64,000 nucleotides of DNA from an uncultured Alphaproteobacteria bacterium. Its GTDB lineage: Bacteria; Pseudomonadota; Alphaproteobacteria; HIMB59; GCA-002718135. The number at the start of each line of letters is the position of its first letter. The stretch's first letter is position 1. Both the position numbers and the translations under genes were made by a program. Under the pieces are notes generated by a model that was not told the origin of the DNA, did not search any database, and saw only the letters and a program-made list of their open reading frames with translations. The stretch spans positions 46,905 to 110,904 of the forward strand of contig CACJGU010000003.1 of the NCBI GenBank assembly GCA_902593125.1. Direction: 5' to 3'. Shown here piece by piece: positions 35,929 to 62,944 of this stretch.

Positions 35929-35957
35929 ATTAAAAAAAAAGTTTATTTTTTTTAATT

Positions 35958-36986: not shown

Positions 36987-36996
36987 ACTATTAATA

Positions 36997-37026
36997 TTGA
37001 CATTAAAAAATTATTTAGTTTAAAAT
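36997..37026 (+). promoter_or_regulatory. candidate sigma70-type promoter upstream of the aldehyde dehydrogenase gene
   Basis: TTGACA (36997..37002), an 18-nt spacer, then TAAAAT (37021..37026). In AT-rich DNA such matches can arise by chance. Confidence 0.35.
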
Positions 37027-37057
37027 ACATTAATTACTTTTTTCGGAGGTTGACAAA

Positions 37058-38494: not shown

Positions 38495-38525
38495 CTAATA
38501 TTTTTTGAATTACTCAATGTTTTGC

Positions 38526-38547
38526 TTGACATCCAAAACGTTTCGGA
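38526..38547. promoter_or_regulatory. TTGACA hexamer abutting the LacI-type palindrome (operator 2)
   Basis: TTGACA (38526..38531) is followed directly by TCCAAAACGTTTCGGA (38532..38547), with one asymmetric position. The architecture is the same as operator 1. Confidence 0.65.
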
Positions 38548-38593
38548 TTTTATTTTAATAACAATAAATACAATTAATTTTAGGGAGGATTAA

Positions 38594-39589: not shown

Positions 39590-39600
39590 TATTAACTCGA

Positions 39601-39633
39601 ACTGACTCATTCAATAATGAGTCAGTTTTTTTT
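39601..39633 (+). terminator. hairpin / attenuating terminator after the SBP gene
   Basis: ACTGACTCATT pairs with AATGAGTCAGT around loop CAAT, followed by T8. Confidence 0.8.
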
Positions 39634-39637
39634 ACTT

Positions 39638-40384: not shown

Positions 40385-40391
40385 TAAAAAT

Positions 40392-41366: not shown

Positions 41367-41368
41367 GA

Positions 41369-42688: not shown

Positions 42689-42761
42689 ATCTTGCTCTAA
42701 ATTTTATAATTATATAATATAAAAATACTTACACTTGTAAGATCGCTCAAAGGAGGATGAA

Positions 42762-43841
42762 GTGGCAGATATAAATATAAACACAGTTAACAAATACTTT
42801 GGGGATGTTCATGTAATAAAAGACATTTCCCTAGATATTAAAAGTCAATCTTTTACAGTTTTAGTAGGACCAAGTGGATGCGGAAAATCAACTATGCTTA
42901 GAATGATAGCGGGTTTAGAAGATATTAACTCTGGAACAATTTCAATTGACGGACAAATTGTTAATGACTTACCACCTAAGCAAAGAAATATTGCAATGGT
43001 GTTCCAATCATATGCATTATATCCACACATGACTGTCTTCGATAATATGGCATTTGGTTTAAAGTTAGAAAAACGATCAAAAGATGAAATTAATGATCGT
43101 GTTAATGAAGCTGCAAGAATTTTGCAAATTGAAGATTATCTCAAAAGAAAACCAAAACAACTATCAGGTGGACAAAGACAAAGAGTAGCAATAGGAAGAG
43201 CTATTACTAGAAAACCAAAAGTTTTCCTATTTGATGAGCCTCTTTCAAATTTAGATGCAGCTTTAAGAGTTCAAATGAGAGTTGAGTTAGCTAAACTTCA
43301 TAATGAATTAGAGGCTACTATGATATATGTAACTCATGATCAAACTGAAGCAATGACTCTTGCTGATGATATTGTAGTTTTGGACACAGGTATAGTGTCT
43401 CAAAAAGGATCTCCGATGGATTTATATAAAAATCCAAATAACATGTTTGTAGGTGGTTTTATTGGTTCTCCAAAAATGAATTTTATAAATACAAAAATTA
43501 CTAGCAAAAGTAATAATTCAACAGAGGTCGACATTCTTGGGAGTTCAAAAATTTCTGTACCTAAATTATCAGCTTCAGCATCTGAAGGTGATAATGTTAC
43601 ATTAGGAATTAGACCAGAAGACCTTCTTGTAAATCAAGAATCTGACGGATCATGGGAGAGCAAGGTATTTGTTGTCGAAAAGTTGGGTTCAGGAACATTT
43701 CTTTATCTTGAAAAGGATGGGGAGCCACTAGTTGTTGAGACTGAAGGTAATTCTAATATTAAAGTGGGTGATTCAGTTAAAGTTGGTTTTCCATCAGATA
43801 GATGTCATCTTTTTGATAGCTCAAATCAAGCATTTAAATAA
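42762..43841 (+). CDS. MalK/UgpC/MsiK-type ABC sugar-transport ATPase with a C-terminal regulatory (TOBE-like) domain
   Basis: 359 aa (GTG start, preceded by AAGGAGGA) with GPSGCGKST, LSGGQRQRVAIGRA and FLFDEPLSNLD. Confidence 0.92.
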   Translation: MADININTVNKYFGDVHVIKDISLDIKSQSFTVLVGPSGCGKSTMLRMIAGLEDINSGTISIDGQIVNDLPPKQRNIAMVFQSYALYPHMTVFDNMAFGLKLEKRSKDEINDRVNEAARILQIEDYLKRKPKQLSGGQRQRVAIGRAITRKPKVFLFDEPLSNLDAALRVQMRVELAKLHNELEATMIYVTHDQTEAMTLADDIVVLDTGIVSQKGSPMDLYKNPNNMFVGGFIGSPKMNFINTKITSKSNNSTEVDILGSSKISVPKLSASASEGDNVTLGIRPEDLLVNQESDGSWESKVFVVEKLGSGTFLYLEKDGEPLVVETEGNSNIKVGDSVKVGFPSDRCHLFDSSNQAFK

Positions 43842-47789: not shown

Positions 47790-48890
47790 TTATATTTCTA
47801 TCTTTCTATATTCAGATTTATCTAGCCACTCAGGATTAATTTCAATACCCCAACCAGGGGCATCTTCAATTCTAACCATTCCATTGGATATTTTAAAAGG
47901 ATCACCTAAAAATAAATTTTGTTGCCAAGGATAATAATCTTTACCCTCTATTGAAAATTCAAGGTAAGGACCAGCATTACTTATTGCTTTTAAAAAATGC
48001 ATTGTGCAAATTGTTACTAAAGATAAATTAGCAGTATGTGGAGTGCATATAAAACCACCTTTTTCAATTATTTTAGCAACTTTTAAAGCTTTTGTTAATC
48101 CTCCTAGATACATAACATCTGGCTGAAAAATATTTACAATTTTTCTTTTAACCATATCTCTCCAAATTCTTAAATCGCAATCTTGTTCTCCTCCAGTTAC
48201 ATCTATCTTCAAACTATCAGTGACTTTTTTGGTTTCTTCTGGTTTCCAGTAAGGACAAGGCTCTTCAAAGTGAGTAACATTATTATCTTCTAAAAGTTTA
48301 CCAATTTCTATTGCTTGATCAGAATTATAACAACTATTTGCATCAACCATTTTAATTACACTTTTATCTAAAGATAAATTTATAGTTTTTACTATATCAG
48401 ACGTTCTTCCCTCCCATTCGTCAACTCCTCTACCACATTCAGAACCAACTCTAAATTTAAATGCATTAACGCCCTTTTCATTAAACAGTATATTAAATCT
48501 ATTTGCTTCATCATCAGGTTTAATATCTCTTTTCATTGATGAGCCATAAATTCTTAAATTACCAGGAGATCCTCCTATTAATGAAACTACAGGTTTACCT
48601 TCAATTTTTCCTTTCAAATCCCAAAGGGCAGTATCAAGTCCCGCTAATGCTCTTAAAAGATAGGAGCCAGGGAATTTGTGCTCTCTTTCAAAAACAAAGT
48701 CTGCCAAATCGTCAAAATCGTAGTAAGTTTTTCCCAAAATCCATGGTGCAACTTGTTTGTGAAAAATTTGATTTGTTATATCTGCGTGGTAAGTTGACAT
48801 TTGACCAAATCCAACTGATCCATCTTCAATGGTTACTTTAACAAAGCTAACATAAGATTTTGTAAAAGTTTCAAGTTTAATTATTTTCAT
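47790..48890 (-). CDS. enolase-superfamily enzyme (mandelate racemase/muconate-lactonizing subgroup, probable acid-sugar dehydratase)
   Basis: 366 aa with metal-ligand contexts MVDANSCY, HFEEPCP and TGGEQD. Confidence 0.83.
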   Translation of the reverse strand: MKIIKLETFTKSYVSFVKVTIEDGSVGFGQMSTYHADITNQIFHKQVAPWILGKTYYDFDDLADFVFEREHKFPGSYLLRALAGLDTALWDLKGKIEGKPVVSLIGGSPGNLRIYGSSMKRDIKPDDEANRFNILFNEKGVNAFKFRVGSECGRGVDEWEGRTSDIVKTINLSLDKSVIKMVDANSCYNSDQAIEIGKLLEDNNVTHFEEPCPYWKPEETKKVTDSLKIDVTGGEQDCDLRIWRDMVKRKIVNIFQPDVMYLGGLTKALKVAKIIEKGGFICTPHTANLSLVTICTMHFLKAISNAGPYLEFSIEGKDYYPWQQNLFLGDPFKISNGMVRIEDAPGWGIEINPEWLDKSEYRKIEI

Positions 48891-50508
48891 ATCTTGACTG
48901 TTTTTTTAAATCCTCTGTAATGATTTTACTACCTAAATTAGCAAGCATCATAACAGGCGCATTAATATTTCCAGAGGTAATATTTGGAAACACTGAAGCA
49001 TCTAAAACCCATAAGTTTTTTAACCCATGTACTTTAAATCTCTCAGAAACCACTCCTTTTGATTTATCTTTATCCATTCTGCAAGTTCCACATGGATGAT
49101 AAATAGAAACAGCATTTTCCTTAAAATGTTCAAACATCTCCTCTTCACTTCCATCTATTAGATTATTATTAATATTATCAACTCTTATATCTTTAATAGA
49201 GCTAGTTTTTGCTAATGTATTAGAAAAATTAATGGCACATTTTACATCATAAACATCCTCATCGTTACATAAGAAGTTTGGATTGATAACTGGTTTATCT
49301 TCTACATAAGGACTTGAAAGATTTACTTCACCTAAACTTTTAGGGCGGCATGAATTATATCCTATTATAAAGCCATCAAATTTGTCTGTTTTTAGAAGGG
49401 GTCTTTTATTTTTATGGGTAATAGAATAAGTTATTGGATTAAAATATATTTGCAAATTAGGATATTTATTGCGAGAATTCCAGTTTACGTATCCTCCTGA
49501 TTGATTCAAACTTAAACTAAACGACCCCTTTCTATAAAAAAGATACTTGTATATTTCCTTTATTCTTCCTGACCATGTTCCCAAAGAACTGTTTAATGTG
49601 GGATGAAAAGTTTTAAATAAATAATCTATACCCAAGTGATCTTGAAAATTTTTACCAACATTAACATTATTAATAATTATTTCCTTATTCATTTTTTTTA
49701 AATCTTCGGCATTACCAACACCAGAGTGCATAAGGATAAATGGTGTCATTATTGCACCAGCACATAATATTGTTGCTAAATTAGGTTTTATTATAATTTT
49801 CTTTTTCTTATTAATAATTTCTATAGCTTCAACTTTATTTTCCTTAATTATCAGTTTATTAACAAATGTTTTTGTCATTAATATTAATCTTTTATTTTTT
49901 AAAATTGGTTTTAAGAAAGCTTTAGAAGATGAATATCTTCTACCTTTAAAAGTAGTAATATTATAATGTCCTATTTGATCACTTAATTCAGTATTTAAAT
50001 TTTTATTGAATTTAATACCCATTTCATCACAGCCTCTAAAAAAATATTTTAGAATTGAATGATGTTGATTACTAACATCATTAACAGGCATTTTGTTCAA
50101 ACTTAATGATGAATAACTTGAATCTACCGGTTGTTCAATTTCTTTAAAACTATTAATTATTTTATCTAATGATAATTCAGAGCTCATATGCCAATTTTCA
50201 TAATCTGTTTTCACTCCTCTTGAATAAACCATGCCATTAATTGAACTAGATCCCCCCAAAACTTTACCCCTAGGATAATAAATTTCCCTATTGTTAAGTT
50301 GATTTTGTTTTTCAGAATAGAAATTCCAATTTATTTTTTTATTATAAAACGTCATTCCATAACCCAAAGGAACGTGCACAACAGGACTACTGTCTTTAGG
50401 TCCAGCTTCAATCAAAAGAATTTTATAATTGGTATTATTTATTAATTTATTAGCTAAAATACACCCGGCTGATCCAGCACCTATAATTACTATATCTATA
50501 TTATCCAA
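48877..50508 (-). CDS. GMC-family FAD oxidoreductase (choline/sugar dehydrogenase-like)
   Basis: 543 aa with DIVIIGAGSAGCILANKL and GGSSSINGMVY, plus the C-terminal catalytic-His region HPCGTCRM. The gene's 3' end overlaps the start of the downstream enolase-superfamily gene by 14 nt. Confidence 0.87.
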   Translation of the reverse strand: MDNIDIVIIGAGSAGCILANKLINNTNYKILLIEAGPKDSSPVVHVPLGYGMTFYNKKINWNFYSEKQNQLNNREIYYPRGKVLGGSSSINGMVYSRGVKTDYENWHMSSELSLDKIINSFKEIEQPVDSSYSSLSLNKMPVNDVSNQHHSILKYFFRGCDEMGIKFNKNLNTELSDQIGHYNITTFKGRRYSSSKAFLKPILKNKRLILMTKTFVNKLIIKENKVEAIEIINKKKKIIIKPNLATILCAGAIMTPFILMHSGVGNAEDLKKMNKEIIINNVNVGKNFQDHLGIDYLFKTFHPTLNSSLGTWSGRIKEIYKYLFYRKGSFSLSLNQSGGYVNWNSRNKYPNLQIYFNPITYSITHKNKRPLLKTDKFDGFIIGYNSCRPKSLGEVNLSSPYVEDKPVINPNFLCNDEDVYDVKCAINFSNTLAKTSSIKDIRVDNINNNLIDGSEEEMFEHFKENAVSIYHPCGTCRMDKDKSKGVVSERFKVHGLKNLWVLDASVFPNITSGNINAPVMMLANLGSKIITEDLKKQSRYENN

Positions 50509-50512: not shown

Positions 50513-51544
50513 TTAGAATGTTTGAGTTATTTTTCTTAAATATCTTGGTTTATCTGGATTTAAATTTTTACTAAAGGAATAATTGATTATCCACGGATAA
50601 AATTTTGTCATAATATATATTGAGTCTAGAATATTAAATATTTTATTAGACTTAAAATAAAAACTTTTATCGTTGTAATTTTTTTTACTTGAAATTAAGT
50701 AGTATAAATTTGTATATTTGATTATTTCTTTAGCATTATTACTAACTATTTGACCAGATTTGTCATTAGTTTGCAGTACAAACAATTTAAACTTTTTTTC
50801 AATAAGTATTTTTGGGCCATGTAAAACCTCTGCACTACTAAATGGCTCTATTAATTCATAACATAATTCTTTGAATTTTAGAGAAATTTCATTTGCTAAA
50901 GCAAGCCCTACACCTCTACTAATAATAAATCCATGATTAACTTTTTTGTTAATTTTATTTTGACTCCATTGATTAATTTTATCTTTTATCAAAAATTCAC
51001 TTAGCTTTAATATTTCATCATTAATATTTTTTTGATTAATTGAATAAAATATTAATTTTATTATTATAGTAATAGTCATTGTAAATGATTTTGTTGCAGC
51101 AATACTTTTTTCCTGACCTGCATAAATATCAAGAAAGAAGTCAGAGTTTTTTAACATTGGGCTATTTTGATTGTTACAAAGAATAATTGTTTTTGCTCCC
51201 ATTTTTCTTACCTGTTTTTCGCACTCAATTAAGTCCTTACCCATTCCAGATTGAGAGATTACTAGTACTAAAGCATGAGAGAAATTAAATTTTGATTTTT
51301 CAATTGTGATGAGTGAAGGAGGCAGTGAATATGTAGGCAATTTACAATATTTAGCAAATAAATAGGATGAAAATAATGCAGCACAATCAGAAGTACCTCT
51401 AGCTATAGTAACAATATATTTAATTTTTTTACTATTTATTAATTTTGCAATAGATTTATAATCGTTTTTATCATTAATAAAAAGATCATTTAATATATAT
51501 GGTATGTCTAGAGCTTCTTTAAGAACTAATGAATTTTTTTTCAA
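50513..51544 (-). CDS. double-SIS-domain amino-sugar-6-phosphate deaminase/isomerase (NagB-II/AgaS/GlmS-C-like)
   Basis: 343 aa with SIS motifs TIARGTSDCAA and VLVISQSGMGKD. It overlaps the nagA 3' end by 26 nt. Confidence 0.78.
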   Translation of the reverse strand: MKKNSLVLKEALDIPYILNDLFINDKNDYKSIAKLINSKKIKYIVTIARGTSDCAALFSSYLFAKYCKLPTYSLPPSLITIEKSKFNFSHALVLVISQSGMGKDLIECEKQVRKMGAKTIILCNNQNSPMLKNSDFFLDIYAGQEKSIAATKSFTMTITIIIKLIFYSINQKNINDEILKLSEFLIKDKINQWSQNKINKKVNHGFIISRGVGLALANEISLKFKELCYELIEPFSSAEVLHGPKILIEKKFKLFVLQTNDKSGQIVSNNAKEIIKYTNLYYLISSKKNYNDKSFYFKSNKIFNILDSIYIMTKFYPWIINYSFSKNLNPDKPRYLRKITQTF

Positions 51545-52610
51545 CTTCTTCTCCTTTTAAATATACATGTTTTATTTTATATTTTTTATCAAGAACAATA
51601 AAATTTGAAAGATAATTCTCTTTTATTTCACCAACATTACTTAGATTTAAAAAATCAGCAGCATTTGAACTTGTCATTGCTATAACTTTATTTAATTTAT
51701 AGCCTAAATTGATTAAATTAATAAATATATCATACATCGTAACAACACTACCTGCTAATGTATTATTATTTTTTAATTTTATAATATTCCCTTTTTTAAC
51801 TATATCATTATTGAATAATTTATATTCTCCATCCTTTAAACCATTAACACTAACTGAGTCTGTTACTGCATAAAGTTTTTTAATTGATTTTTGCGCTATT
51901 TTAATTGCTTCTGGGCTAACATGGAGTTTATCACAAATAATTTCAGCAAAATTCCCATATGCTAAGGCGGCAGATAATACACCAGGATTTCTATGATCAT
52001 TACCTGACATTGCATTGTATAAATGCGTAAAGCTAACATTATATTTATCCATATATTTTTTACAACATTCAGCTGAAGCTAATGAATGACCAAACTGAAT
52101 TGATATTTTTTTTGAATTTATATATTCTATAAAGGACTCCATACCATCAAGTTCAGGTGCTAAAGTTATAGTTTTGACATCAGCAATATTTAATATTTCA
52201 TCCATAAATTTAATTGATGGCTCTTTAGACAAATCAGGTTGCGCGCCTAATTTATTTGGATTTATAAAAGGACCTTCTAAATGAATACCAAAAATATTTC
52301 CCGCCCTATTACTATCTTTTATATTTTCAAGTGCACTCATTGTGTGCTCCAACGTGCTAGTCCAAGTTGAGGGTAATATCGAAGTTGTTCCATGCTCTAA
52401 ATGAAAAAGAGACATTTTATTAATTGCATCATATCCTTGCATAGTATCAGCACCCACAGCTCCATGGCAGTGTGGATCAATAAACCCTGGTATTATTAAA
52501 TCTTCATTATTTTCTTGTTCTTTAGTAATTTTGTTAATTTTATTTGTAAAAGATATAGAGCCAAAGAAAGATTCTTTATTGTTAACTATTTTACCATAAA
52601 TTTTTTTCAT
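51519..52610 (-). CDS. nagA: N-acetylglucosamine-6-phosphate deacetylase
   Basis: 363 aa with PGFIDPHCHGAVG, HLEGPFINP, and the HLYNAMS region. Confidence 0.87.
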   Translation of the reverse strand: MKKIYGKIVNNKESFFGSISFTNKINKITKEQENNEDLIIPGFIDPHCHGAVGADTMQGYDAINKMSLFHLEHGTTSILPSTWTSTLEHTMSALENIKDSNRAGNIFGIHLEGPFINPNKLGAQPDLSKEPSIKFMDEILNIADVKTITLAPELDGMESFIEYINSKKISIQFGHSLASAECCKKYMDKYNVSFTHLYNAMSGNDHRNPGVLSAALAYGNFAEIICDKLHVSPEAIKIAQKSIKKLYAVTDSVSVNGLKDGEYKLFNNDIVKKGNIIKLKNNNTLAGSVVTMYDIFINLINLGYKLNKVIAMTSSNAADFLNLSNVGEIKENYLSNFIVLDKKYKIKHVYLKGEEVEKKFISS

Positions 52611-52614
52611 TTAA

Positions 52615-53538
52615 TTACTTCAAAATTCTTTTATCATTATATAAATTTTCTACAAATTCTTTTTTCTGTGTCATTAAATATGCACCATCTACAGGATTTG
52701 ATTTATTTATATGTACAAACTTTTTAAATTTATTTGGCGTATATTTAAAATAAAAATTAGATAATCCTCCTGATAAATAAATTTTATTTTTTTTTTTAAT
52801 ATTTATTAAGTGATGTAATATGTTTTCATATTCTAAGATTATTTCTTTAAATATTTTTTTTGATAATTCAGATTGATTTAAATATTTTAAAAAAATTTTA
52901 AAAATAGATGCAATTTTTTCTATATCATTTCTCATTAATTTTTTCATAATAGTTAAGTCATTATTACCAAAATTAATGATCAAATCTTTATATATAGGAT
53001 CATTCTTTTCTAAGTTATCTATATTTTTTAAGAAATAAGTTATAATTTTTTTTCCAATCCAATATCCACTGCATTGATCTCCAAACATATGCCCCCAACC
53101 ACCAATTTGATATTGGGTATTTTTGTTTATGAAGAAATGTATGACTGATCCAGTACCAATATTAAAAGAAGCAATGTCTTTATAATTTTTAATTTCAATA
53201 TTTTGTAAAATTGACAAGAGAGATATATGGCCATCAGTTGATATAAAAATTTTTTTATAATTTTTTAGTCTTTTTCTAATAATATTTTTTTTTGATATAT
53301 TTCTTCCCCCTGCTAATCCTAAGCTGATAACAATATTTTTTTTTCTTATATTTTTTAGTATTTTTGATTTTTTTAAATGATAATCTATACAGTCTAAAGA
53401 TAAATTAAAATTATTTTCAATATTACATAAACCTCCCACATTTTTTTCTATCTTATTTCCATTTGTATCAAAAACTGCAGATGTTGATTTTGAAGCACCT
53501 CCATCTAAACAAAAGATATAATGATTTTTTTTAATCAT
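52615..53538 (-). CDS. BadF/BadG/BcrA/BcrD-type ATPase, N-acetylglucosamine kinase-like
   Basis: 307 aa with N-terminal phosphate-1 motif FCLDGGASKST and GTGSV. The protein is extremely K/N/I-rich. Confidence 0.72.
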   Translation of the reverse strand: MIKKNHYIFCLDGGASKSTSAVFDTNGNKIEKNVGGLCNIENNFNLSLDCIDYHLKKSKILKNIRKKNIVISLGLAGGRNISKKNIIRKRLKNYKKIFISTDGHISLLSILQNIEIKNYKDIASFNIGTGSVIHFFINKNTQYQIGGWGHMFGDQCSGYWIGKKIITYFLKNIDNLEKNDPIYKDLIINFGNNDLTIMKKLMRNDIEKIASIFKIFLKYLNQSELSKKIFKEIILEYENILHHLINIKKKNKIYLSGGLSNFYFKYTPNKFKKFVHINKSNPVDGAYLMTQKKEFVENLYNDKRILK

Positions 53539-53559
53539 AATTTAGTATAATCAATAATA

Positions 53560-54237
53560 ATGATTAAAAAAAACAAATTAATCCTAGATAACCTAAAAAA
53601 AGGTTTAGTGGCGTCATGTCAGCCAATTCCTCAAGGTCCCATGGATAAATCATCAATAATTTTAGCAATGGCAAAATCTTCATTGATTGGAGGGGCTAAA
53701 GGTTTGAGGATCGAGGGAGAAAAAAATATCAAATTAATAAAAAAAAATACAAATGTTCCAATTGTTGGCTTGATAAAAAGAAATTTAAGTAATTATCCTG
53801 TAATCATTACACCATTTCTTTCAGATATTGAAAAAATAGCAAATGCGGGTGCGGATATAATAGCATTTGATGCCACAAATAGAAATAGACCTGAAAGCGT
53901 AAAAAGTATTATTAATGAAATAAAAAAATTTAATAAGATTTCAATGGCAGATTGCTCATCTATATTTGATGTTAAAAATGCAATTAAAAGCGATGTCGAT
54001 ATAATTAGTACAACATTATCAGGATATACAAAGAATAAAATTCCTGAATATCCAGATTTTAAATTATTAAGAGAATCTATAAGTTTAAAAATACCGGTGA
54101 TTGCAGAGGGAAGATTCAACACCCCTTATTTGGCTAAAAAAGCAATAAAAATGGGTGCACATTGTGTTGTTGTTGGAACAGCATTAAATAGAGTAGAAAT
54201 AATTACAAATAATTTTGTGAATACTATTAATGAGTAA
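53560..54237 (+). CDS. nanE: N-acetylmannosamine-6-phosphate 2-epimerase
   Basis: 225 aa with GLVASCQP, GLRIEG and VIAEGRFNTP. Confidence 0.85.
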   Translation: MIKKNKLILDNLKKGLVASCQPIPQGPMDKSSIILAMAKSSLIGGAKGLRIEGEKNIKLIKKNTNVPIVGLIKRNLSNYPVIITPFLSDIEKIANAGADIIAFDATNRNRPESVKSIINEIKKFNKISMADCSSIFDVKNAIKSDVDIISTTLSGYTKNKIPEYPDFKLLRESISLKIPVIAEGRFNTPYLAKKAIKMGAHCVVVGTALNRVEIITNNFVNTINE

Positions 54238-55093
54238 AAATTTTGTATCCGTAGATATTGGAGGTACGAAAATATCAGTATGTTTTTTTAAAAAAAATAT
54301 AATCGTAAAGAAAAAAAAGTTTAAAACTGAAAATTTTGGTCCCTCTAACTTGTTAAATATAAGAAATTTTCTTTTGAATAACGTAAATGATATTTCATCT
54401 ATAGGAATAGCTACAACTGGTTTAGTATATAAAAAAAAATGGTCTACTTTGAATAGAAATATGATTGGTAGTTTTGATAATTTTCCAATAGTTAATTTCT
54501 TTAAAGAGAAGTTTAAAATACCAATTTTTGCTATTGGAGATACACACGCCGCATCATTAGGTGAATCATATTATGGGAATGGAAAAGATTTAAAAGATTT
54601 TTTCTATATTACAGTATCAACAGGTATAGGAGGAGCTGCAATTATAAATAAAAAAGTTTTAAATTCGAATAAAAAAATAGTTGGGCAAATCGGACATACT
54701 GTAATTAAATATAATGGGAATATTTGTGGCTGTGGCAGAAAGGGGTGTTTAGAGGCTTATTCTTCAGGTACTGCAATACAAAAAAATATTAATAAAAAGC
54801 TTAAATTAAATCTTAAGTTGAAAGAATTGATTAAAAATCATAGTAAAAATAAGATAGTTATAGATTCTTTAAATAGTGCTGCATCAGTGTTATCAGAAAG
54901 TATAGTAAATATTCATAATATTCTTGGTATAAAAAACTTTATTATTGGGGGGAGTGTAGGATTAAATAATGTATTTTTTAATAAGTTAAATTTTATTATT
55001 AAAGATAAAAATATTAAAATTAAATTAAAAAAAGCAGGTTTGAGACATGATGCTGAAGCTTTTGGTTGTTTAGCTTATTCAAAATATAATTAA
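54230..55093 (+). CDS. nanK: ROK-family sugar kinase (N-acetylmannosamine kinase-like, no HTH domain)
   Basis: 287 aa with VDIGGTKISV and the ROK zinc motif CGCGRKGCLEAY. It overlaps nanE by 8 nt. Confidence 0.75.
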   Translation: MSKNFVSVDIGGTKISVCFFKKNIIVKKKKFKTENFGPSNLLNIRNFLLNNVNDISSIGIATTGLVYKKKWSTLNRNMIGSFDNFPIVNFFKEKFKIPIFAIGDTHAASLGESYYGNGKDLKDFFYITVSTGIGGAAIINKKVLNSNKKIVGQIGHTVIKYNGNICGCGRKGCLEAYSSGTAIQKNINKKLKLNLKLKELIKNHSKNKIVIDSLNSAASVLSESIVNIHNILGIKNFIIGGSVGLNNVFFNKLNFIIKDKNIKIKLKKAGLRHDAEAFGCLAYSKYN

Positions 55094-55096: not shown

Positions 55097-55936
55097 TTAC
55101 TTAACAGCACCTGATGTAATACTCCTAATTAATTGTTTAGAAAAGATAATATAAAAAATTAGTATGGGTATTAAGGCTGTTGATAGCGAAGCAAAAACAG
55201 CATTCCAATTGGTTACGTATTGTCCAATATATTGTTGCATTCCCAAAATTACAGTTTGTTTACCACTTGAAGGAGCAAGAACTAAAGGCCACCATATATC
55301 ATTCCATACTGGTACCATTGTAAAAACTGCAACAGTTGCTAATGGTGGTCTTAGCAATGGTAAGATTATATAAAAAAATAATTGATATTCATTCACTCCA
55401 TCACACCTGGCGGCTTCTTTTAATTCATTGTTAACTTGTTTCATAAATTCAGATAAGATCCAAATAGCCAAAGGCAAACTTTGAGCTGTGTAGACAACAA
55501 TTAGGCCAGTAAGAGTGTTGACCAAACCCATTGAATTAAGAACTTGAAGAACACTTACAGTTCCTAATTTAATTGGCATCATAATTCCAAAAGCAAGATA
55601 CAATCCTAACATCGTATTTCCTTTAAATTTATATTCTGATAATGCCCATGCTGCCATTGCACCAAAAAGAAGAACTAAAAAAAGAGTAATTAAAGTAACA
55701 GTGATTGAATTATAAAAAAATATTCCAAAGTCTACTCTTGAAAACATTTTAGTAAAACCTGTTAAACTAAATGTTTCTTCAGAAGGCAAACTTAAAGGTT
55801 CTTTAAAAATAGCTTTTCTTTTTTTAAATGAATTAGATAATAATAAGTAGACAGGAAACATACATATTAGTGTGTACAATAAAAGAACACTATGCATAAT
55901 TAGTTGATTGATTTTTTCTTGATAAGATCTCATCAA
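55097..55936 (-). CDS. ABC sugar permease (MalG-like)
   Basis: 279 aa with EAA loop LKEAARCDGVNEYQLFFYIILPLLRP. Confidence 0.9.
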   Translation of the reverse strand: MMRSYQEKINQLIMHSVLLLYTLICMFPVYLLLSNSFKKRKAIFKEPLSLPSEETFSLTGFTKMFSRVDFGIFFYNSITVTLITLFLVLLFGAMAAWALSEYKFKGNTMLGLYLAFGIMMPIKLGTVSVLQVLNSMGLVNTLTGLIVVYTAQSLPLAIWILSEFMKQVNNELKEAARCDGVNEYQLFFYIILPLLRPPLATVAVFTMVPVWNDIWWPLVLAPSSGKQTVILGMQQYIGQYVTNWNAVFASLSTALIPILIFYIIFSKQLIRSITSGAVK

Positions 55937-56871
55937 TATTGATACCTTGTTATTCTTTTTTGAAAGGCAAATAAGTAAAGCAATACTCCTATAAGTATAA
56001 TACCAAAAGTGGCTGATGCTACTGTTGCACCCATAGTTGGGTTACCCAATTGATGCTGAAATCCAAAAAAAGTTCTATAAAAAAATGTTCCCATTAAATC
56101 TGTTGAAAATTCAGGTCCCGCATATAAACCTCTAATAGCAAAAATGAGATCAAAGGCATTAAAATTACCGACATATGTTAGTATGACCATTAAGCCAACG
56201 GTAGGCATAATAAGTGGTAACTTAATATACCAAAAAGTAGTAATACCATTAGACCCATCAATTTTTGATGCTTCAAGAACCTCATCAGGAATATTTAATA
56301 ATGCAGCATAAAATAACATCATAGGAATACCAACAAACTGCCAAATTGAAATCAAGGATATCGTAATAAGAGCGGTTTCCTTAAGCCCCAACCAAGGTTG
56401 ATAAAGGTTTTCTAAGCCTACTGCACCAAGCAATGTTTGAGGTATTCCCCAGAGGTTTGATAGTATTAGATTGAAGATGTAGCCAACTATAACAATTGAC
56501 ATCATTGCTGGTAAAAATATTAAGGTTCTATAAGTACCTTTAAATTTTAATTCTTTAGATGACAAAAAAGCTGCTATTAATAAGCCTATAGGTGTTTGAA
56601 TTGAAACGTGTAGTATAAAAAAATATGTATTATTTTTTAGGGCATTCCAAAAATGGTATGACCATAATTCATCGAAAAAAAGTATTCTGTAATTATTAAT
56701 TCCAGTAAATGTTCTGACACCAGTGGTATTATCTAAATTACTTCCCATTAAATCCTGGGTGTAGAAACTTATTCTTAAAGTATCAAATAAAGGAAAAATC
56801 ATAAAAATTGTGTAAATAAAACAGGCTGGAAACAAAAATACAATTATATGGTAGGGAAATTTCTTCTTCAT
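55933..56871 (-). CDS. ABC sugar permease (MalF-like)
   Basis: 312 aa with EAA loop VLEASKIDGSNGITTFWYIKLPLIMP. Confidence 0.9.
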   Translation of the reverse strand: MKKKFPYHIIVFLFPACFIYTIFMIFPLFDTLRISFYTQDLMGSNLDNTTGVRTFTGINNYRILFFDELWSYHFWNALKNNTYFFILHVSIQTPIGLLIAAFLSSKELKFKGTYRTLIFLPAMMSIVIVGYIFNLILSNLWGIPQTLLGAVGLENLYQPWLGLKETALITISLISIWQFVGIPMMLFYAALLNIPDEVLEASKIDGSNGITTFWYIKLPLIMPTVGLMVILTYVGNFNAFDLIFAIRGLYAGPEFSTDLMGTFFYRTFFGFQHQLGNPTMGATVASATFGIILIGVLLYLFAFQKRITRYQY

Positions 56872-56895: not shown

Positions 56896-56929
56896 AAAGG
56901 ATCGCGGATAATAAATTCCGCGATCCTTT
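56896..56929 (-). terminator. 13-bp-stem hairpin between the SBP and permease genes
   Basis: AAAGGATCGCGGA pairs with TCCGCGATCCTTT around an 8-nt loop. T/A runs lie on both sides. Confidence 0.65.
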
Positions 56930-56934: not shown

Positions 56935-58185
56935 TTACTGATGTGGCTCGTACCAATTAGCTAAGCTAGCTTCAGTTTTTGCCGCACCTTCTTCAGGAGT
57001 CATAGTGCCATTAATAACACTGGATACAACTTCGTAGATCACTCCATCTAAGTTTGGCTCACCTCTTCCAACTATATGACTGCTATTTCTAATAGTAGTG
57101 TCACAAGTATCTTTCCAGCTAATAAATTCTTTAGCAACTGGATCGTTAACATTTATTGAATGAGTATGTAGTGGGAAAAATCCTGGAACTTCATTTGCAA
57201 AAATTTCAGCAAATTCTGCACTAGTTAACCACTCCAAGAAAATTTTAGCTTCCTCTTTATTTGTTGAAGCAGAATTTAGGCCAATACCAATATCGGTGTG
57301 ATCATCAATATAACAATCTGCTTGACCATCTTGTGTATAAGGTGGAAAAGCACTAAATTCAAAATCAGCATTTTGAGAAAATGTAAATATTTCCCAAGAT
57401 CCAGTTGGATAAATTGCTGCCATTCCAAGTGTAAATAAATTTTGACTATCAGGGTAAGTTTGAGTTTGATACCCGTCAGCCATATAGTTACTCCATCTTT
57501 GTAATGATGTTAATAAATCCACATAGTGTTGATCAGTGAATTTTTCATCACCAGTTATGATAGCTTTACGACCTTTCTCACCTGCCCAATAATTAGGTCC
57601 AACATTTTGCCAACCCATAATTGCAGTTGCCCATGTATCTGCTGTGCCAATTGCTAATGGAGTATAATTTCCATCATCTTTGATTTTATCCAAAGTTGCA
57701 AAAAATTCACTTTCAGTTTTTGGAATTGATAATCCAAGTTCTGCAAATATTTCTTTATTGTACATAAATCCATGGGAAACTGATGCCATTGGGACACAGA
57801 ATAAATCAGAACCATCATCTGTACTCCAAGCATCTTTTGCAACTTGAGGATAATTATCTAAACCTCCTAAAGAGTTGAGAGAATCTAACCACCCTCTGTT
57901 AAATAATTTTAACGATTGGTCAAATGGAATACAAGTGATTAAATCTCCAGCAGTTCCACCTTCGAGTTTAGCATTCATGCTACCAGCATATTGAACCGGT
58001 ATAGTTGTTTGAAAAATAACTTCAATATCTGGATATTTAGCATTAAATGCAGGGATTATTGCATTGTTCCATGCATCCGCATCATCATTTCTCCAAGATT
58101 CTATGACTAATTTACCAGCATAAGCTGTATTGAATAGAAAAATAGATGAAATAGATATTAATGTTATAGAAATAAATTTCCTCAT
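56935..58185 (-). CDS. CUT1-type ABC transporter periplasmic sugar-binding protein
   Basis: 416 aa with signal peptide MRKFISITLISISSIFLFNTAYA. The gene is GC-richer than the flanking enzyme genes. Confidence 0.88.
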   Translation of the reverse strand: MRKFISITLISISSIFLFNTAYAGKLVIESWRNDDADAWNNAIIPAFNAKYPDIEVIFQTTIPVQYAGSMNAKLEGGTAGDLITCIPFDQSLKLFNRGWLDSLNSLGGLDNYPQVAKDAWSTDDGSDLFCVPMASVSHGFMYNKEIFAELGLSIPKTESEFFATLDKIKDDGNYTPLAIGTADTWATAIMGWQNVGPNYWAGEKGRKAIITGDEKFTDQHYVDLLTSLQRWSNYMADGYQTQTYPDSQNLFTLGMAAIYPTGSWEIFTFSQNADFEFSAFPPYTQDGQADCYIDDHTDIGIGLNSASTNKEEAKIFLEWLTSAEFAEIFANEVPGFFPLHTHSINVNDPVAKEFISWKDTCDTTIRNSSHIVGRGEPNLDGVIYEVVSSVINGTMTPEEGAAKTEASLANWYEPHQ

Positions 58186-58246: not shown

Positions 58247-59287
58247 ATGGGTCAAGCTAATATCTTAAACAAAGATGAAGTACTCAAAAAAATATTTATC
58301 AAACATAAAGCAAAAAATCATATAACTGCAAATTTTGAAATACGGAATAACAGTCATAATAAATTAATAAAATTACCCATAATTTCTATGAAAAATATGG
58401 ATGGACCTGTTGTTCTCCTAATAGGTGCTAATCATGGAGATGAAACTGAAGGCTTCATTTCATTATTTAAATTAATAAAAAATCTAAGATTAGAAGAAAT
58501 TAAGGGTCATTTGATTATAATACCAGCTTTAAACTTACCAGCTTTAAATAATGGCAATAGAGTTTCAATGTTAGATAAAATAGATATGAATAGAAGTTTT
58601 TATAATAATAATAATAATAGTTTAACTTTCAAAATATCAAATTTTTTAAAACAAAGTATTTTACCAAATGTGGAAGTAATTTTAGATATTCATTCTGGAG
58701 GAAAAAATAGAAAGTTTTTAGAAATGGCAAAGTATTATCATTATGAAAATAAATTTCTAATGAAAAAATCTAGAGAAATTGCAATGGCTTTTGGTGCACC
58801 AATATGTTTGAAACATTATGAAAAAAATCCGCATGGCATGCTTGATGTTCTAGCCGTAAAATCTAACAAAATATATGTTAGTGCTGAATTGGGTGGAGGC
58901 GGCTTAGCTAACAAAAAATCTATATCAATCGCAGACAATGGAATAAATAATGTTTTGAAATTTCTTAAAATAATAAAATACGATTTAAAATATATTTCTA
59001 AGATTAAAAAAAGAAAATCAAAACTTTTGTATTTTAATGATGTAAGTAAAAATTTTATATTATCAAAAACGGAAGGAATATTTGAAATAAATGTCAATAT
59101 TGATTCAAAAATTACCAAAGATGATTTGATTGGCACTATTCATTTTCCAGATAATCCTAAAAAAGAGCCAAAGAGAATAATTTCAAAGCTATCAGGTACT
59201 GTAATTGGTATAACAAATAAATCATTTATTAAAAAAGGTGATTTTTTAATTTTAATTGGTGTTATAAAGGAAAAAAATTATGATTAA
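58247..59287 (+). CDS. succinylglutamate desuccinylase/aspartoacylase (AstE/AspA) family zinc deacylase
   Basis: 346 aa with zinc motif LLIGANHGDETEG and DIHSGG. The C-terminal region is a beta-barrel-like tail. Confidence 0.75.
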   Translation: MGQANILNKDEVLKKIFIKHKAKNHITANFEIRNNSHNKLIKLPIISMKNMDGPVVLLIGANHGDETEGFISLFKLIKNLRLEEIKGHLIIIPALNLPALNNGNRVSMLDKIDMNRSFYNNNNNSLTFKISNFLKQSILPNVEVILDIHSGGKNRKFLEMAKYYHYENKFLMKKSREIAMAFGAPICLKHYEKNPHGMLDVLAVKSNKIYVSAELGGGGLANKKSISIADNGINNVLKFLKIIKYDLKYISKIKKRKSKLLYFNDVSKNFILSKTEGIFEINVNIDSKITKDDLIGTIHFPDNPKKEPKRIISKLSGTVIGITNKSFIKKGDFLILIGVIKEKNYD

Positions 59288-60005
59288 GAATAATTATGTT
59301 AAAAAATATATTGCTGAAGTCAAAAAATCTATAGAGCTTATTTCAAAAACACAAGATATAAAATTAAATCAAGCTGTAGAGTTATTTTGTACAACATATT
59401 TTAATAATGGCATGATATATATTTTTGGAACAGGTCATTCACATATGATTGCAGAAGAAGGACATTTTCGTGCTGGTGGATTTGCACCAATATGTCCCAT
59501 TTTGTCATCTAGCACTATGCTTCATGAAAGTGCAACTTTTAGTTCACAAATTGAAAGAACTAAAGGTGTAGCTTCTCAATTGTTAGATAAATATAATTTA
59601 ACATCTAAGGATATTATTATTATTATTTCTAATAGTGGTGTCAATCAAGCACCCATAGAGGCTGCCCTTTACGCGAAAAAAAGGAAAAGTAAAGTAATTG
59701 GAATTTCTTCTTTAAAATATTCCAAAAAAATTAATAAAAACAAAAAATTATATCAATTGTCAGATTTACATATAGATAATTGTGGCCCAAGAGGTGATGC
59801 AATTATATCTGTAAATAAGTATAAAGTTGCGCCATTCTCAACAATTGGTGGAGCCGCAATTATTAATTCAATTATTTCTGAAGTGGCATATAAGCTAAGA
59901 GATGAAAACCCGTTCCCGTTTTATATAAGCTCTAATATGCCAAACTCAAAAGTACATAATGAAAGATTATTTGCAAAATATAGATCTAGAAACCCTCATT
60001 TATAA
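59280..60005 (+). CDS. SIS-domain protein (UPF0309-like)
   Basis: 241 aa with IYIFGTGHSHMIAEEGHFRAGGFAP and IIIISNSGVNQAPIE. It overlaps the deacylase gene by 8 nt and has no HTH. Confidence 0.7.
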   Translation: MIKNNYVKKYIAEVKKSIELISKTQDIKLNQAVELFCTTYFNNGMIYIFGTGHSHMIAEEGHFRAGGFAPICPILSSSTMLHESATFSSQIERTKGVASQLLDKYNLTSKDIIIIISNSGVNQAPIEAALYAKKRKSKVIGISSLKYSKKINKNKKLYQLSDLHIDNCGPRGDAIISVNKYKVAPFSTIGGAAIINSIISEVAYKLRDENPFPFYISSNMPNSKVHNERLFAKYRSRNPHL

Positions 60006-61865
60006 TTAAAATAAATGATGCTTCCAGCCAATTTTTTCAAGCATATTAATAATATTAAATAAACAATTCCTAAAACTATTCCAAGATCTCGAAGACCTAC
60101 CTTTCCATGCTATTTCAGATAATGTTGCTAATCTAGGATTAATCATTTCATCAAAGTATTCTTTGTTAGTAATTGTTTCTGACCATAGTTGAGCTTGAAT
60201 ACCTTTAATCATATTTTTATTATTTATTTTTTCATCTGGTATCCAATGAAATATATCCTTTACTTCTATTGTTGATGCCCAAGATAAGCCCCTTTCTTCA
60301 GTTGAATTATTGTAGGCCATATCAAAATATGTTTTCTCACCTGGGCATAAAATTGTTTCAAAATTTTTACTTGTTATTTCTCTTGCAACATCATTATGCT
60401 CCCATGCAAAAATTAAACATGATCTATCAATGTTTCCAGCACTTCCGCCAACTCCATGATCAATATGTGGAGAGACTGCTGCTTCATTCCAAGCTGCTGT
60501 TCTTTTATTTTTTGATTTAATAATACCGATTAAATAATTCATATAATAATCTTGAAATTCTTCTTGTGAATTAATTTTGTTTTTTCTCATAAACTCAATT
60601 ATTGAGGGTGCTCCTTTCCAAGAATTTTCTGGTCTTTCATCTAATCCTACATGTATGGTATCAAAAGTAAAAATTTCACATATTTCCTCAAATAGATTTT
60701 TTAAGAATTTTTTTGTTTTATCTAATGAGGGATCAATAGTATTATTTTTATAAGATCCAATATCTTCACTAATTATATTTGAATTTTTGTCTCTCAACTC
60801 AGGCATTATTTGCAGCAATGTCCAAGAATGGGCAGGTAAATCAATTTCAGGCATAATTTCTATATTGTACTTTTTTGCATATTTAATTAATTTTTTAACA
60901 TCCTTTTTTTTGTAAAAGCCACCATATTGATTAAAGCCACTACCATAAAACGGAGGTATTTTCATATTATAACCTCTGTATCCTCCAATATCTGTAAGAT
61001 CAGGATATTGTTTTATTTCAATTCTCCAAGCTTCATTATCAGTTAGATGCCAATGAAATCTATTCATTTTAAAGAGAGCCATATAATCAAGCAATTTTTC
61101 AATTTCTTTAATTGAATAAAATTGTCTAACGCAATCTAAATGCATTCCTCTCCAAGTATATTTTGGCGTATCATGAATTTCGCATAAGGGTATTCTGTTT
61201 TCATAATAATAAATAATTTGAATAAGCGTCATTGTTGCATAAAATTTTCCTCCATAATTTTTATAAAAAATTAAAATTTTATTTTTTAAAATTTCTAGAG
61301 AATACTCATCGTCAACTAAATCTTTTTCTAAAAAATAAATTGGAAACCCTTTTGTTTTCATAAATTTTATATTAAGATTTGATATTAATTTTTTAGTATT
61401 TTTAAATATATCTTCGCCATTAATTAATTTGAATTCTCGATTAGTAATATCTGCTAAATCATTTTTAATTAAACATTTCAAAGGTTCCGGTATAATGGGT
61501 ACAAAATTTTTTTCTATTTTCAGATCTTTGTATTTAGGTTTTTTTATTATATTTTCGAATAACAGTTCATTTACGTAAACTTTTTCATGTTCATTTTTTT
61601 TATTAATTAAAAAAACTCCCTCTGGACCACATGACTTATTATAAGAACCTATCTTTGGTACTTGTAAGTTAATTAATATAGTGTGCTTTTTAACTTCAAG
61701 CTCATAATATCTTCCTATTTGTTTTATAATATTTGCACCTTCAATAGATTTTATAGAATAAACTAATGAAAAACATAATTTTAAATTGTTATTCAAAATA
61801 TTTTTACTTAAATCCATTTTTAGTTGGTTTTTTTTTGTAAATGATGGATTTATCTGAAATAACAT
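60006..61865 (-). CDS. GH20 beta-N-acetylhexosaminidase (no signal peptide, likely cytoplasmic)
   Basis: 619 aa with RGMHLDCVRQF, NRFHWHLTDNEAWR and the catalytic pair in HVGLDE. An alternative start, MDLSKN, lies at 61817. Confidence 0.87.
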   Translation of the reverse strand: MLFQINPSFTKKNQLKMDLSKNILNNNLKLCFSLVYSIKSIEGANIIKQIGRYYELEVKKHTILINLQVPKIGSYNKSCGPEGVFLINKKNEHEKVYVNELLFENIIKKPKYKDLKIEKNFVPIIPEPLKCLIKNDLADITNREFKLINGEDIFKNTKKLISNLNIKFMKTKGFPIYFLEKDLVDDEYSLEILKNKILIFYKNYGGKFYATMTLIQIIYYYENRIPLCEIHDTPKYTWRGMHLDCVRQFYSIKEIEKLLDYMALFKMNRFHWHLTDNEAWRIEIKQYPDLTDIGGYRGYNMKIPPFYGSGFNQYGGFYKKKDVKKLIKYAKKYNIEIMPEIDLPAHSWTLLQIMPELRDKNSNIISEDIGSYKNNTIDPSLDKTKKFLKNLFEEICEIFTFDTIHVGLDERPENSWKGAPSIIEFMRKNKINSQEEFQDYYMNYLIGIIKSKNKRTAAWNEAAVSPHIDHGVGGSAGNIDRSCLIFAWEHNDVAREITSKNFETILCPGEKTYFDMAYNNSTEERGLSWASTIEVKDIFHWIPDEKINNKNMIKGIQAQLWSETITNKEYFDEMINPRLATLSEIAWKGRSSRSWNSFRNCLFNIINMLEKIGWKHHLF

Positions 61866-61876: not shown

Positions 61877-62944
61877 ATGGGATTTGAAGATATATTTAAA
61901 CATAAACCTCAAATAAAAGAAAGTGCTAATGCACGTGTCAATCTAATTGGAGAGCATACTGATTACACCGGAGGTTATGTTATGCCTACTTTGTTGAATT
62001 TTAAAAATACTGTTGAACTATCAAAAAATGATGAAAAAAAATTTGTTGTATTTTCACAATATTTTAATGAAAAAAAAGTTTTTAATGATTTTATTAAATC
62101 AAAAAATAGTGATTGGTCTGATTATATAAAAGGATGTTTTTTTATTTTTTTTGATGAGAACAAAAAGATCAAATTAGAACATTTTAATATGTATATCAAA
62201 TCCACAATTCCATTAGGACGTGGTATTTCATCTTCATCGGCACTATGTGTATCAATATTAAAAGCATTGAATACATATTTTAATACTCAAATAAATGAAA
62301 AGCATTTGGCTATTTTGGCGAAGAAAGTTGAAAATGAATATATTGGTATCTCTAGTGGTATAATGGATCAAATGGTTTCTTCAATTGGCAGGTATGAAAA
62401 AGCATTTTTTTTAGATTGTCTCAATTTAAAATATGAACTTATAAATTTTCCATCAAATTGGAAATTTTGCCTTATTGATTCTGAGGTACAAAGAAATTTA
62501 CGAAGTAGCTCATACAACGATCGTTTTAATGAATTAAAGATAGCGGAAAAAGAACTTGATGTTGAATATTTAGGTGGAGTTGATTTAAATAAATTTGATT
62601 CAGATAAAATTTCAGATCCAACAGTTATAAAACGAGCAAGACATGTTGTGAGTGAAAACAACAGAGTCTTGAAAGCCAAAGAATGTTTGTTAAAAGATGA
62701 TATCAATCAATTTGGTAAATTAATGATTGAAAGTCATAATTCCTACTCAAAGGATTTTGAAGCATCTACTGCAGATGTTGATGAAATTGTTAAAAGATCA
62801 TTTCAATGTGGAGCTTTAGGAGCAAGATTAACAGGTGGTGGATTTGGAGGTTTTACTGTTTCTCTAATAGAAAAAGAAAAATTTTCAGATTGGTATAAAA
62901 AAATTAATAAATATTACCCTAAAGAAAAAATATTTGAAGTATAA
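61877..62944 (+). CDS. galK: GHMP-family galactokinase-like sugar 1-kinase
   Basis: 355 aa with the galactokinase signature RVNLIGEHTDY, GHMP motif PLGRGISSSSAL, and GGGFGG. Confidence 0.83.
   Translation: MGFEDIFKHKPQIKESANARVNLIGEHTDYTGGYVMPTLLNFKNTVELSKNDEKKFVVFSQYFNEKKVFNDFIKSKNSDWSDYIKGCFFIFFDENKKIKLEHFNMYIKSTIPLGRGISSSSALCVSILKALNTYFNTQINEKHLAILAKKVENEYIGISSGIMDQMVSSIGRYEKAFFLDCLNLKYELINFPSNWKFCLIDSEVQRNLRSSSYNDRFNELKIAEKELDVEYLGGVDLNKFDSDKISDPTVIKRARHVVSENNRVLKAKECLLKDDINQFGKLMIESHNSYSKDFEASTADVDEIVKRSFQCGALGARLTGGGFGGFTVSLIEKEKFSDWYKKINKYYPKEKIFEV

Follow-up and report, generated by a model that had tools for sequence, protein, structure and literature searches.

How can a bacterium make use of a gene set that joins enzymes of N-acetylglucosamine (GlcNAc) catabolism (Nag) to enzymes of sialic acid catabolism (Nan), with no sialic acid lyase and no regulator beside it? 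This question is raised by a stretch of 64,000 nucleotides (hereafter the window) from contig CACJGU010000003.1 of an uncultured alphaproteobacterium of the HIMB59 lineage. An earlier reading of the letters alone (the original prediction) had described, at 50513-55093, a hybrid Nag/Nan locus that would funnel both GlcNAc and free N-acetylmannosamine (ManNAc) into glycolysis. We read this locus, with moderate confidence, as a regulator-free salvage island for N-acetyl-hexosamines (HexNAc), in which two kinases and the epimerase NanE would deliver GlcNAc and ManNAc to NagA and NagB-II without any involvement of sialic acid. Since entry would take place at the level of HexNAc and not of sialic acid, no lyase would be needed. 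The island would cover roughly 12-17 kb, i.e. 50.5-62.9 kb and perhaps further down to 46.7 kb.

The core of the locus is made of five genes. They were located in a list of open reading frames (ORFs) and assigned to families with Pfam and NCBIfam profiles and PDB sequence searches, each NCBIfam score being compared with the cut-off of its model. Identities, coordinates and junctions all agree with those first proposed. Three genes follow one another on the minus strand, encoding a BadF/BcrAD-type sugar kinase resembling NagK and MurK (52615-53538), a GlcNAc-6-phosphate (GlcNAc-6-P) deacetylase NagA of the binuclear, HxH type (51519-52610) and a double-SIS glucosamine-6-phosphate deaminase of the NagB-II type (50513-51544). 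The first two are separated by a 4-nt gap (52611-52614) and the last two overlap by 26 nt (51519-51544). Across a spacer of 21 nt (53539-53559), the kinase gene diverges from two plus-strand genes that overlap by 8 nt (54230-54237) and encode the ManNAc-6-phosphate (ManNAc-6-P) 2-epimerase NanE (53560-54237) and a NanK-like kinase of the ROK family (54230-55093). An independent gene call on a TARA scaffold (L035) gave identical lengths and the identical 26-nt overlap.

NanE matches PF04131 (236.7 bits), passes the cut-off of PRK01130 (274.3 bits vs. 189) and shares 43% identity with the NanE of Escherichia coli. NagA is borderline for TIGR00221 (218.2 bits vs. a cut-off of 225.65) and keeps all the canonical motifs (DPHCHG, HLEGP, THLYNAM and TD), including the metal motif of the Shewanella-type enzyme. 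The deaminase aligns over its full length (5-342 of 343) with NF046059 (NagB_SO3506) at 212.8 bits for a cut-off of 430, has the double-SIS architecture of the Shewanella type, and matches the solved NagB-II structure 8eol and 3hba in the PDB (E=2.5e-40). For the ROK kinase, scores of 185 bits (PRK05082, cut-off 283) and 156 bits (another NanK model, cut-off 450) were obtained; its best PDB matches are all NanK (6jdc, E=2.8e-33), its identity with E. coli NanK is 28%, and it keeps the ATP motif DIGGTK and the zinc motif H..CxC..C. The BadF-type kinase matches PF01869 (BcrAD_BadFG, 35.7 bits) and, at 90 bits for a cut-off of 370, NagK_SO3507. In the PDB it is nearer to a broad-specificity hexokinase and to MurK: the first match is the S. 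tokodaii hexokinase 2e2n and the second is the N-acetylmuramic acid (MurNAc)/GlcNAc kinase 8zo3. Full-length matches below the equivalog cut-offs thus make the deaminase, the BadF-type kinase and the NanK-like kinase divergent members of their families.

Is this arrangement peculiar to one contig? The window, with a GC content of about 25-34% and tightly packed genes, belongs to HIMB59, i.e. the AEGEAN-169 clade, for which the name 'SAR11 subclade V' is in use too. The closest genomes are those of the single cells AG-893-O06 (L004), AG-893-I03 (L002) and AG-365-O06 (L003), which are classified as o__HIMB59; f__GCA-002718135; g__AG-337-I02 (PMC10734472, supplementary file 5). Their GC content is about 28.8% and their size is estimated at about 1.6 Mb (PMC10734472). 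L004 is fully syntenic with the window, with proteins 77-99.7% identical; taking L004 together with L035 and L042-L045, synteny is kept with proteins 69-99% identical. The exact NanE protein of the window was found only on a TARA Oceans scaffold of 885 bp, homologues at 59-66% identity are plentiful in marine metagenomes, and the gene set was encountered again in 4 genomes and on 57 metagenome contigs. By scanning metagenomes with a NanE alignment, we obtained 80 loci. The 57 loci with a NanE at least 57% identical (334 kb, 358 ORFs) were taken as lineage loci, and the remaining 23, more distant (262 kb), as controls. In the lineage loci, every ORF but one, of the arginase family, matches a gene of the window or of a relative.

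The gene order is conserved. In all 49 lineage loci where the contig allows it to be seen, the ROK kinase comes after NanE; NagA is the next gene in 27 out of 34, and NagB-II comes after NagA in all relatives. Upstream of NanE, we found a GlcNAc-type permease (18 loci), a UPF0309 protein (23), the BadF-type kinase (4) or a β-N-acetylhexosaminidase of glycoside hydrolase family 20 (GH20; 3 loci). The divergent layout of the window is a minority rearrangement (5 of the 57 loci). The common form, found for example in the genomes L040 and L041, is co-directional and reads NanE-ROK-NagA-NagB-II-GMC oxidoreductase-enolase-superfamily enzyme, preceded either by a solute-binding protein (SBP) and two permeases or by SBP403 and UPF0309. 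NanE is reversible, and could run from GlcNAc-6-P to ManNAc-6-P for the synthesis of cell-surface sugars, or its adjacency might have no functional meaning. Such an anabolic or unrelated use appears extremely improbable, as NanE and the ROK kinase are co-directional and overlapping with NagA-NagB-II and the importer genes in most loci and no NeuB/NeuA-type genes lie nearby.

We then examined whether the genes that normally accompany NanE and NanK are present. A Pfam scan of every ORF of at least 100 amino acids across the window revealed no DHDPS/NanA, no sialate transporter of the MFS, TRAP or SSS families, no NagB-I, no phosphotransferase system (PTS) and no GntR/RpiR/ROK-type regulator. The same scan found no regulator at all between 44 and 64 kb; elsewhere in the window it found only two, an Fe-dependent repressor (5289-5693) and, next to another ABC system, a LacI protein (31319-32350). 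Six-frame tblastn searches with E. coli NanA, NanT, NanQ and NanR gave no hit in the window, nor in the 504 kb formed by the window and 63 lineage loci. In comparison, the same queries detected NanA in 13, NanT in 11, NanQ in 11 and NanR in 3 of the 23 control loci, where Pfam confirmed DHDPS, RpiR, MFS and YhcH beside NanE-NanK. Likewise, no dedicated regulator was found in the 57 lineage loci, while GntR was seen in two loci of other genera (L037, L038) and in the controls. An exact-protein look-up of the TauD ORF gave no record, and past the end of the window L004 stands in for the contig; there, TauD is followed by an ammonium transporter (Amt), then by a GlnA-like gene and by a trio of GATase, GXGXG and glutamate-synthase type (methylamine-type genes), with neither nan genes nor a regulator. 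The absence of nanA/nanT, nagB-I, PTS and NagC/GntR/RpiR-type genes between 44 and 64 kb, as originally predicted, is therefore confirmed. As far as visible on either side, with L004 as a guide, no nanA/nanT pair with a regulator lies just outside the window. Taken together, the 49 NanE-ROK pairs out of 49 and the lack of any Nan hit indicate a conserved NanA-independent module and not a chance juxtaposition or an artefact of contig edges.

The pathway might nevertheless be split, nanA and a sialate transporter being encoded elsewhere in the genome and the locus being its downstream half. NanE and NanK do normally act after NanA (PMC2693436), and our search for nanA reached the window and the lineage loci, outside which lies the rest of the genome. 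We consider this explanation quite improbable, given the empty result around 64 independent copies of the module, the presence of these genes within 10 kb in the controls from other taxa, their absence from the window and past its end in L004, and the tight clustering of genes by pathway in streamlined genomes.

How, then, would the salvage island operate? Uptake of an N-acetyl-hexosamine or a small HexNAc glycoside would fall to the SBP and two permeases, drawing their energy from a shared MalK-type ATPase whose gene lies 11 kb upstream. The cytoplasmic GH20 enzyme would split β-linked HexNAc, the BadF-type kinase would make GlcNAc-6-P, and the NanK-like kinase and NanE would convert ManNAc to ManNAc-6-P and then to GlcNAc-6-P. 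NagA and NagB-II would finally release acetate and ammonium, the product being fructose-6-phosphate. The proposal that both GlcNAc and ManNAc are funnelled to glycolysis thus stands in part: the enzyme families present can convert both sugars to fructose-6-phosphate, while free ManNAc as a substrate and the specificities of the kinases are presumptive. In the census, the BadF-type kinase occurs only in loci with a GlcNAc-type ABC importer, wherever the contig shows any transporter. It had also been suggested that HexNAc could come from an imported glycoside cut by the nearby GH20 enzyme (60006-61865, minus strand; PF00728, 314 bits), and the features of this enzyme fit well. It has no signal peptide, it keeps the catalytic D-E pair (HVGLDE, for HxGxDE), its best structure by sequence is the β-N-acetylglucosaminidase Nag2 (6ezr, E=6.6e-76), and its gene is directly upstream of NanE-ROK-NagA in some relatives.

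The only transporter of the island is an ABC system of the CUT1 type, encoded on the minus strand by two permease genes (55097-56871; PF00528) and by the gene of a periplasmic SBP with a signal peptide (56935-58185; PF01547/PF13416), the N-terminus of which is MRKFISITLISISSIFLFNTAYAG. No ATPase gene lies inside the island. The plus-strand gene at 42762-43841, 11 kb off, encodes a MalK/MsiK-type ABC ATPase (ABC_tran, OB_MalK and TOBE_2 domains). Homologues of the SBP at about 57-61% identity number in the thousands, and orthologous transporters were found in Thalassospira (L037), Hahella (L038) and Pseudodesulfovibrio (L039), with 57-61% identity for the SBP and 53-62% for the permeases. As the distal ATPase is 52-55% identical to the ATPases adjoining these transporters, it likely energises the importer.

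The three loci from other genera are instructive as to both cargo and control. They present the SBP and two permeases followed by a MalK-type ATPase, with a divergent BadF-type NagK, NagA and NagB beside them. The window shares with them the orthologous SBP and permeases adjoining nag enzymes, these enzymes being only 18-30% identical. A GntR regulator is present in the Thalassospira and Hahella loci and none in the window. In Thalassospira and Pseudodesulfovibrio, a bona fide MurQ gene (NF003915, 290 and 282 bits vs. 168) lies directly upstream of the SBP gene; in the window there is no MurQ, a UPF0309 gene takes its place, and the adjacent ATPase is missing. Given the orthology and the missing GntR and ATPase, the window locus can be regarded as one representative of a widespread ABC-type GlcNAc/MurNAc locus, from which the regulator and the neighbouring ATPase have disappeared. 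This agrees with the earlier suggestion that expression control is either absent or encoded elsewhere, since the orthologous transporter loci of larger genomes do have both genes. In KEGG-based annotation, the SBP family is labelled 'raffinose/stachyose/melibiose' (including the homologues P0126 and P0132), and AEGEAN-169 transporters have been given this label, with a kinase put in 'galKMT' (PMC10308909). The genomic context in four phylogenetically distant genera points to HexNAc (GlcNAc/MurNAc) and not to a raffinose-type sugar. We also looked for a ligand by structure, and the best PDB match of the SBP, a mannan-oligosaccharide binding protein (E=2e-15), allows none to be proposed.

Among the variants L004, L035 and L042-L045, the transporter proteins are 96-99.7% identical, as compared with 69-90% for the flanking enzymes. 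A recent horizontal transfer of the transporter, suggested by these values, was discarded because nucleotide identity is only about 85-90% (about 85-97% over these six variants). High protein identity with lower nucleotide identity rather indicates an unusually strong purifying selection on the importer. In addition, the 63-nt gap between the SBP gene and the first permease gene contains a GC-rich stem-loop of 13 bp (56896-56929, minus strand), the sole terminator-like site detected by a site scan of 46-64 kb, in a genome of about 28% GC. It could set the ratio of SBP to permease expression.

Several points weigh against the salvage island as we describe it. Free ManNAc does not stand out as a substrate likely to be plentiful in the sea. 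The matches of the BadF-type kinase, NagA, NagB-II and the NanK-like kinase are all below NCBIfam equivalog cut-offs, the kinase specificities are presumptive, and the reach of the nanA search has been given above. The genomes L002 and L003 keep NagA and NagB-II, with UPF0309, and lack NanE, the ROK kinase, the BadF-type kinase and the AstE-like gene described below. Conversely, L080-L082 carry GH20-NanE-ROK-NagA without a BadF-type kinase; the ROK kinase or an unlinked kinase must then also take GlcNAc, and the source of the substrate of NanE becomes obscure. Finally, the near-universal UPF0309 gene has no role in the scheme.

This last gene deserves attention. The plus-strand gene at 59280-60005 encodes a UPF0309/SIS_2 protein (PRK02947, 253 bits vs. 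135), with structural matches to 3cvj (E=2.2e-38) and to NagS (9eol, E=9e-22, 30.6% identity). Counterparts were found in 35 of the 57 lineage loci, 23 of them directly beside NanE, and in genomes of relatives (L002, 16085-16816; L040, 4607-5335; L041, 9224-9952). They fall into two groups of paralogues, and each group goes with an ABC transporter of its own. NagS is the GlcNAc-6-P dehydratase of Streptomyces (SCO4393), the dehydration product being 6P-chromogen I; it acts on GlcNAc-6-P and ManNAc-6-P, groups near MurQ in phylogeny and is reported to be confined to Streptomycetaceae (PMC12680351). The window protein and 30 out of 30 lineage homologues all keep the residues H53, R64, E94, D179 and N228 that NagS cannot do without, S91 being S or T. 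The window protein thus resembles NagS by its family, by its catalytic and phosphate-binding residues and by a genomic tie to NagA. It differs from NagS orthologues, defined by the authors by at least 58.7% identity, an origin in Streptomycetaceae and linkage to dmdR1 (PMC12680351), by its 30.6% identity, its alphaproteobacterial host and its other neighbours, and from Streptomyces NagS in that its gene is part of a catabolic operon.

From these observations, a route centred on UPF0309 can be proposed. The cargo would be a 3-O-substituted HexNAc (MurNAc-like or a 3-O-glycoside), 6-phosphorylated by the BadF-type or the ROK kinase. UPF0309, acting in the manner of NagS and MurQ, would remove the 3-O group via a C2-C3 enol(ate), and rehydration without strict stereocontrol at C2 would give both GlcNAc-6-P and ManNAc-6-P. 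UPF0309 may in this way be the real source of ManNAc-6-P. NanE would rescue the manno epimer, its presence being explained by the chemistry of the route and by neither sialic acid nor free ManNAc, and NagA and NagB-II would carry the product on to fructose-6-phosphate. The 3-O-substituted cargo is proposed on the basis of the position of UPF0309 next to the SBP, which is that of MurQ in Thalassospira and Pseudodesulfovibrio. The frequency of UPF0309 in the lineage loci, its adjacency to NanE, its two transporter-linked groups, its invariant residues, the double substrate of NagS and the MurNAc/GlcNAc kinase as second structural match of the BadF-type kinase all argue in the same direction. On the other side, homologues of NagS at about 30% identity have no GlcNAc-6-P dehydratase activity, those at 26-36% identity being inactive or nearly so (PMC12680351). 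Moreover, L002 and L003 have UPF0309-NagA-NagB-II without NanE, L080-L082 have NanE without a visible UPF0309, and the profile match of UPF0309 to MurQ is weak (30% probability) and limited to the SIS core, so that catalytic residues cannot be equated. This route, which is a deduction from genes and their order, is a tentative and rather unlikely alternative. If true, it would be an undescribed pathway and the first physiological role for UPF0309 enzymes outside Streptomyces. In any case, an intact NagS-like enzyme is placed here in catabolic operons far outside Streptomycetaceae.

Just upstream of the UPF0309 gene, and overlapping it by 8 nt, a plus-strand gene (58247-59287) encodes a zinc deacylase of the AstE/AspA family (PF24827). 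It is DoeB-like (217.9 bits vs. a cut-off of 402.7 for the DoeB model; PDB 6twm, E=4.7e-47) and has only 6 close protein clusters, after which identity falls to 41%. This gene is confined to the window-type variant, with an equal position in L004, L035, L042, L044 and L045. One could imagine from it that the importer takes up peptidoglycan fragments of the GlcNAc-MurNAc type. The GH20 enzyme would split the disaccharide, the AstE/AspA-like enzyme would strip a residual amino acid from the lactyl group, the BadF-type kinase would act as MurK and UPF0309 as the etherase. Several facts are consistent with this: the orthologous transporters adjoin MurQ, enzymes of the AstE/AspA family cleave N-acyl amino acids that have their carboxylate free, the AstE-like and UPF0309 genes overlap, and the BadF-type kinase resembles MurK. 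Against this, the AstE-like gene is limited to one variant, NanE and the ROK kinase are left unexplained and no AmpD, AnmK or LdcA homologues were seen. Being also wholly inferential, peptidoglycan scavenging seems highly improbable. In sum, we retain the salvage of GlcNAc and ManNAc, and note that the ancestry of the importer, the distal MalK-type ATPase, the NagS-like UPF0309 and the DoeB-like deacylase may change the picture of its substrates.

How would such an island be expressed? Expression is probably constitutive or set by signals within the tiny conserved junction between the divergent genes. An 18-nt inverted repeat (53525-53573) spans both start codons and the 21-nt spacer, with arms at 53525-53542 and 53556-53573 that are 94% complementary, the genes of the BadF-type kinase and NanE both beginning ATGATTAAAAAAAA (MIKKN). 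A TATAAT inside the spacer, 8 nt before the ATG of nanE, suggests that the transcripts may have no leader or only a very short one. L004 and L035 keep the junction at 96% identity; as a modest peak over a background of about 85%, this conservation makes an operator possible and does not demonstrate one. Between 44 and 64 kb, an Rfam scan (E up to 1) detected no riboswitch, ribozyme or other RNA family. A promoter scan found fewer sites than in shuffled sequence, being uninformative in such AT-rich DNA. Mean intergenic spacers are of 2-3 bp in this lineage (PMC10734472), and the lack of a dedicated regulator fits with the streamlining of its genomes.

On both sides, the island is continued by genes of less certain connection. 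The minus-strand string had been thought to end at the deaminase gene. This is not the case: past the deaminase gene, the string takes in a GMC oxidoreductase, an enolase-superfamily enzyme, an HAD protein and a PEMT-family protein, their genes being joined by 4-nt, overlapping and 0-nt junctions. The first two (47790-50508, minus strand, Pfam; 4-nt gap and 14-nt overlap) come after NagB-II in every relative whose contig extends so far. The enolase-superfamily protein matches PDB 3t8q, 3u4f, 3tcs and 3t9p (E=1e-157 to 1e-148), which bear only generic racemase-family names. We considered for this pair a sugar-acid branch (e.g. galactose to galactonate), without settling on it. At the other end, next to the GH20 gene, the plus-strand gene at 61877-62944 encodes a GHMP kinase of the galactokinase family (TIGR00131, 275.7 bits vs. 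226.65), which is followed by a TauD gene. It is always paired divergently with GH20 (L002, L003, L004, L041, L045, L056 and L082). With it, three sugar-kinase families (BadF, ROK and GHMP) lie within 10.3 kb, as the original prediction had noticed.

Other sugar-related genes of the window are worth mentioning. AEGEAN-169 is said to be without a phosphoglucomutase linking galactose metabolism to glycolysis (PMC10308909), and a phosphohexomutase of the PGM/PMM family, adjoining a UDP-glucose dehydrogenase at 28576-31261, may be relevant to this. The regions 11478-17905 and 31319-43841 contain two more CUT1 sugar ABC systems, one CUT2 system, a GH4 glycosidase, LacI, an MFS transporter and a 721-amino-acid protein in which an ADP-ribosylglycohydrolase domain is recognised. 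For a streamlined genome, the window is thus unusually well supplied with genes of sugar uptake. Finally, HexNAc loci repeatedly include a Gfo/Idh/MocA oxidoreductase, in HIMB59 variants (L002, 11874-13019; L041, 5000-6157) as well as in Thalassospira (L037, 3812-4879) and Pseudodesulfovibrio (L039, 4741-5823). It shows weak similarity to models of UDP-GlcNAc 3-dehydrogenase, levoglucosan dehydrogenase and glycoside 3-dehydrogenase.

Very little of HIMB59/AEGEAN-169, a clade abundant in oceans worldwide, has been brought into culture, and its sugar use has so far been described generically. Clade-wide genomic papers on it do not mention amino sugars or chitin, and in the literature on SAR11, AEGEAN-169 and HIMB59 with GlcNAc, ManNAc or chitobiose we found no description of this locus. 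The recurrence of the gene set indicates that many members of the clade can harvest N-acetyl-hexosamines as a joint carbon and nitrogen source with a minimal, regulator-free set of genes. A metagenome survey counted 1,789 'partial' nanE-nanK clusters without nanA (PMC10570557). In the loci studied here, such pairs are a conserved and selected module and not fragments of assembly.

To what known system does the locus finally compare? Beside the systems already treated, two others are recognisable in it. In Shewanella, the GlcNAc pathway comprises the permease NagP and the LacI-type regulator NagR. The window has the three enzyme families of that pathway (NagK SO3507, NagB-II SO3506 and NagA) in one string. 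It differs in that all three enzymes are below equivalog cut-offs, the transporter is of the ABC type, NanE and NanK are added, and neither a LacI-type NagR nor a GntR-type NagQ occurs in 44-64 kb or in the 57 lineage loci. With the nanATEK-yhcH/NanR system of E. coli, it shares NanE, a true epimerase of this cluster by family and score, and a NanK-like ROK kinase, translationally coupled to each other and feeding NagA/NagB. It differs from this cluster by the absence of NanA, NanT, NanQ/YhcH and NanR/RpiR from the window and 63 related loci, by a CUT1 importer in place of a NanT-type transporter, and by the fusion of its genes into a nag operon with that ABC importer. We regard this Nag/Nan hybrid as a so far undescribed variant of known Nag/Nan pathways.

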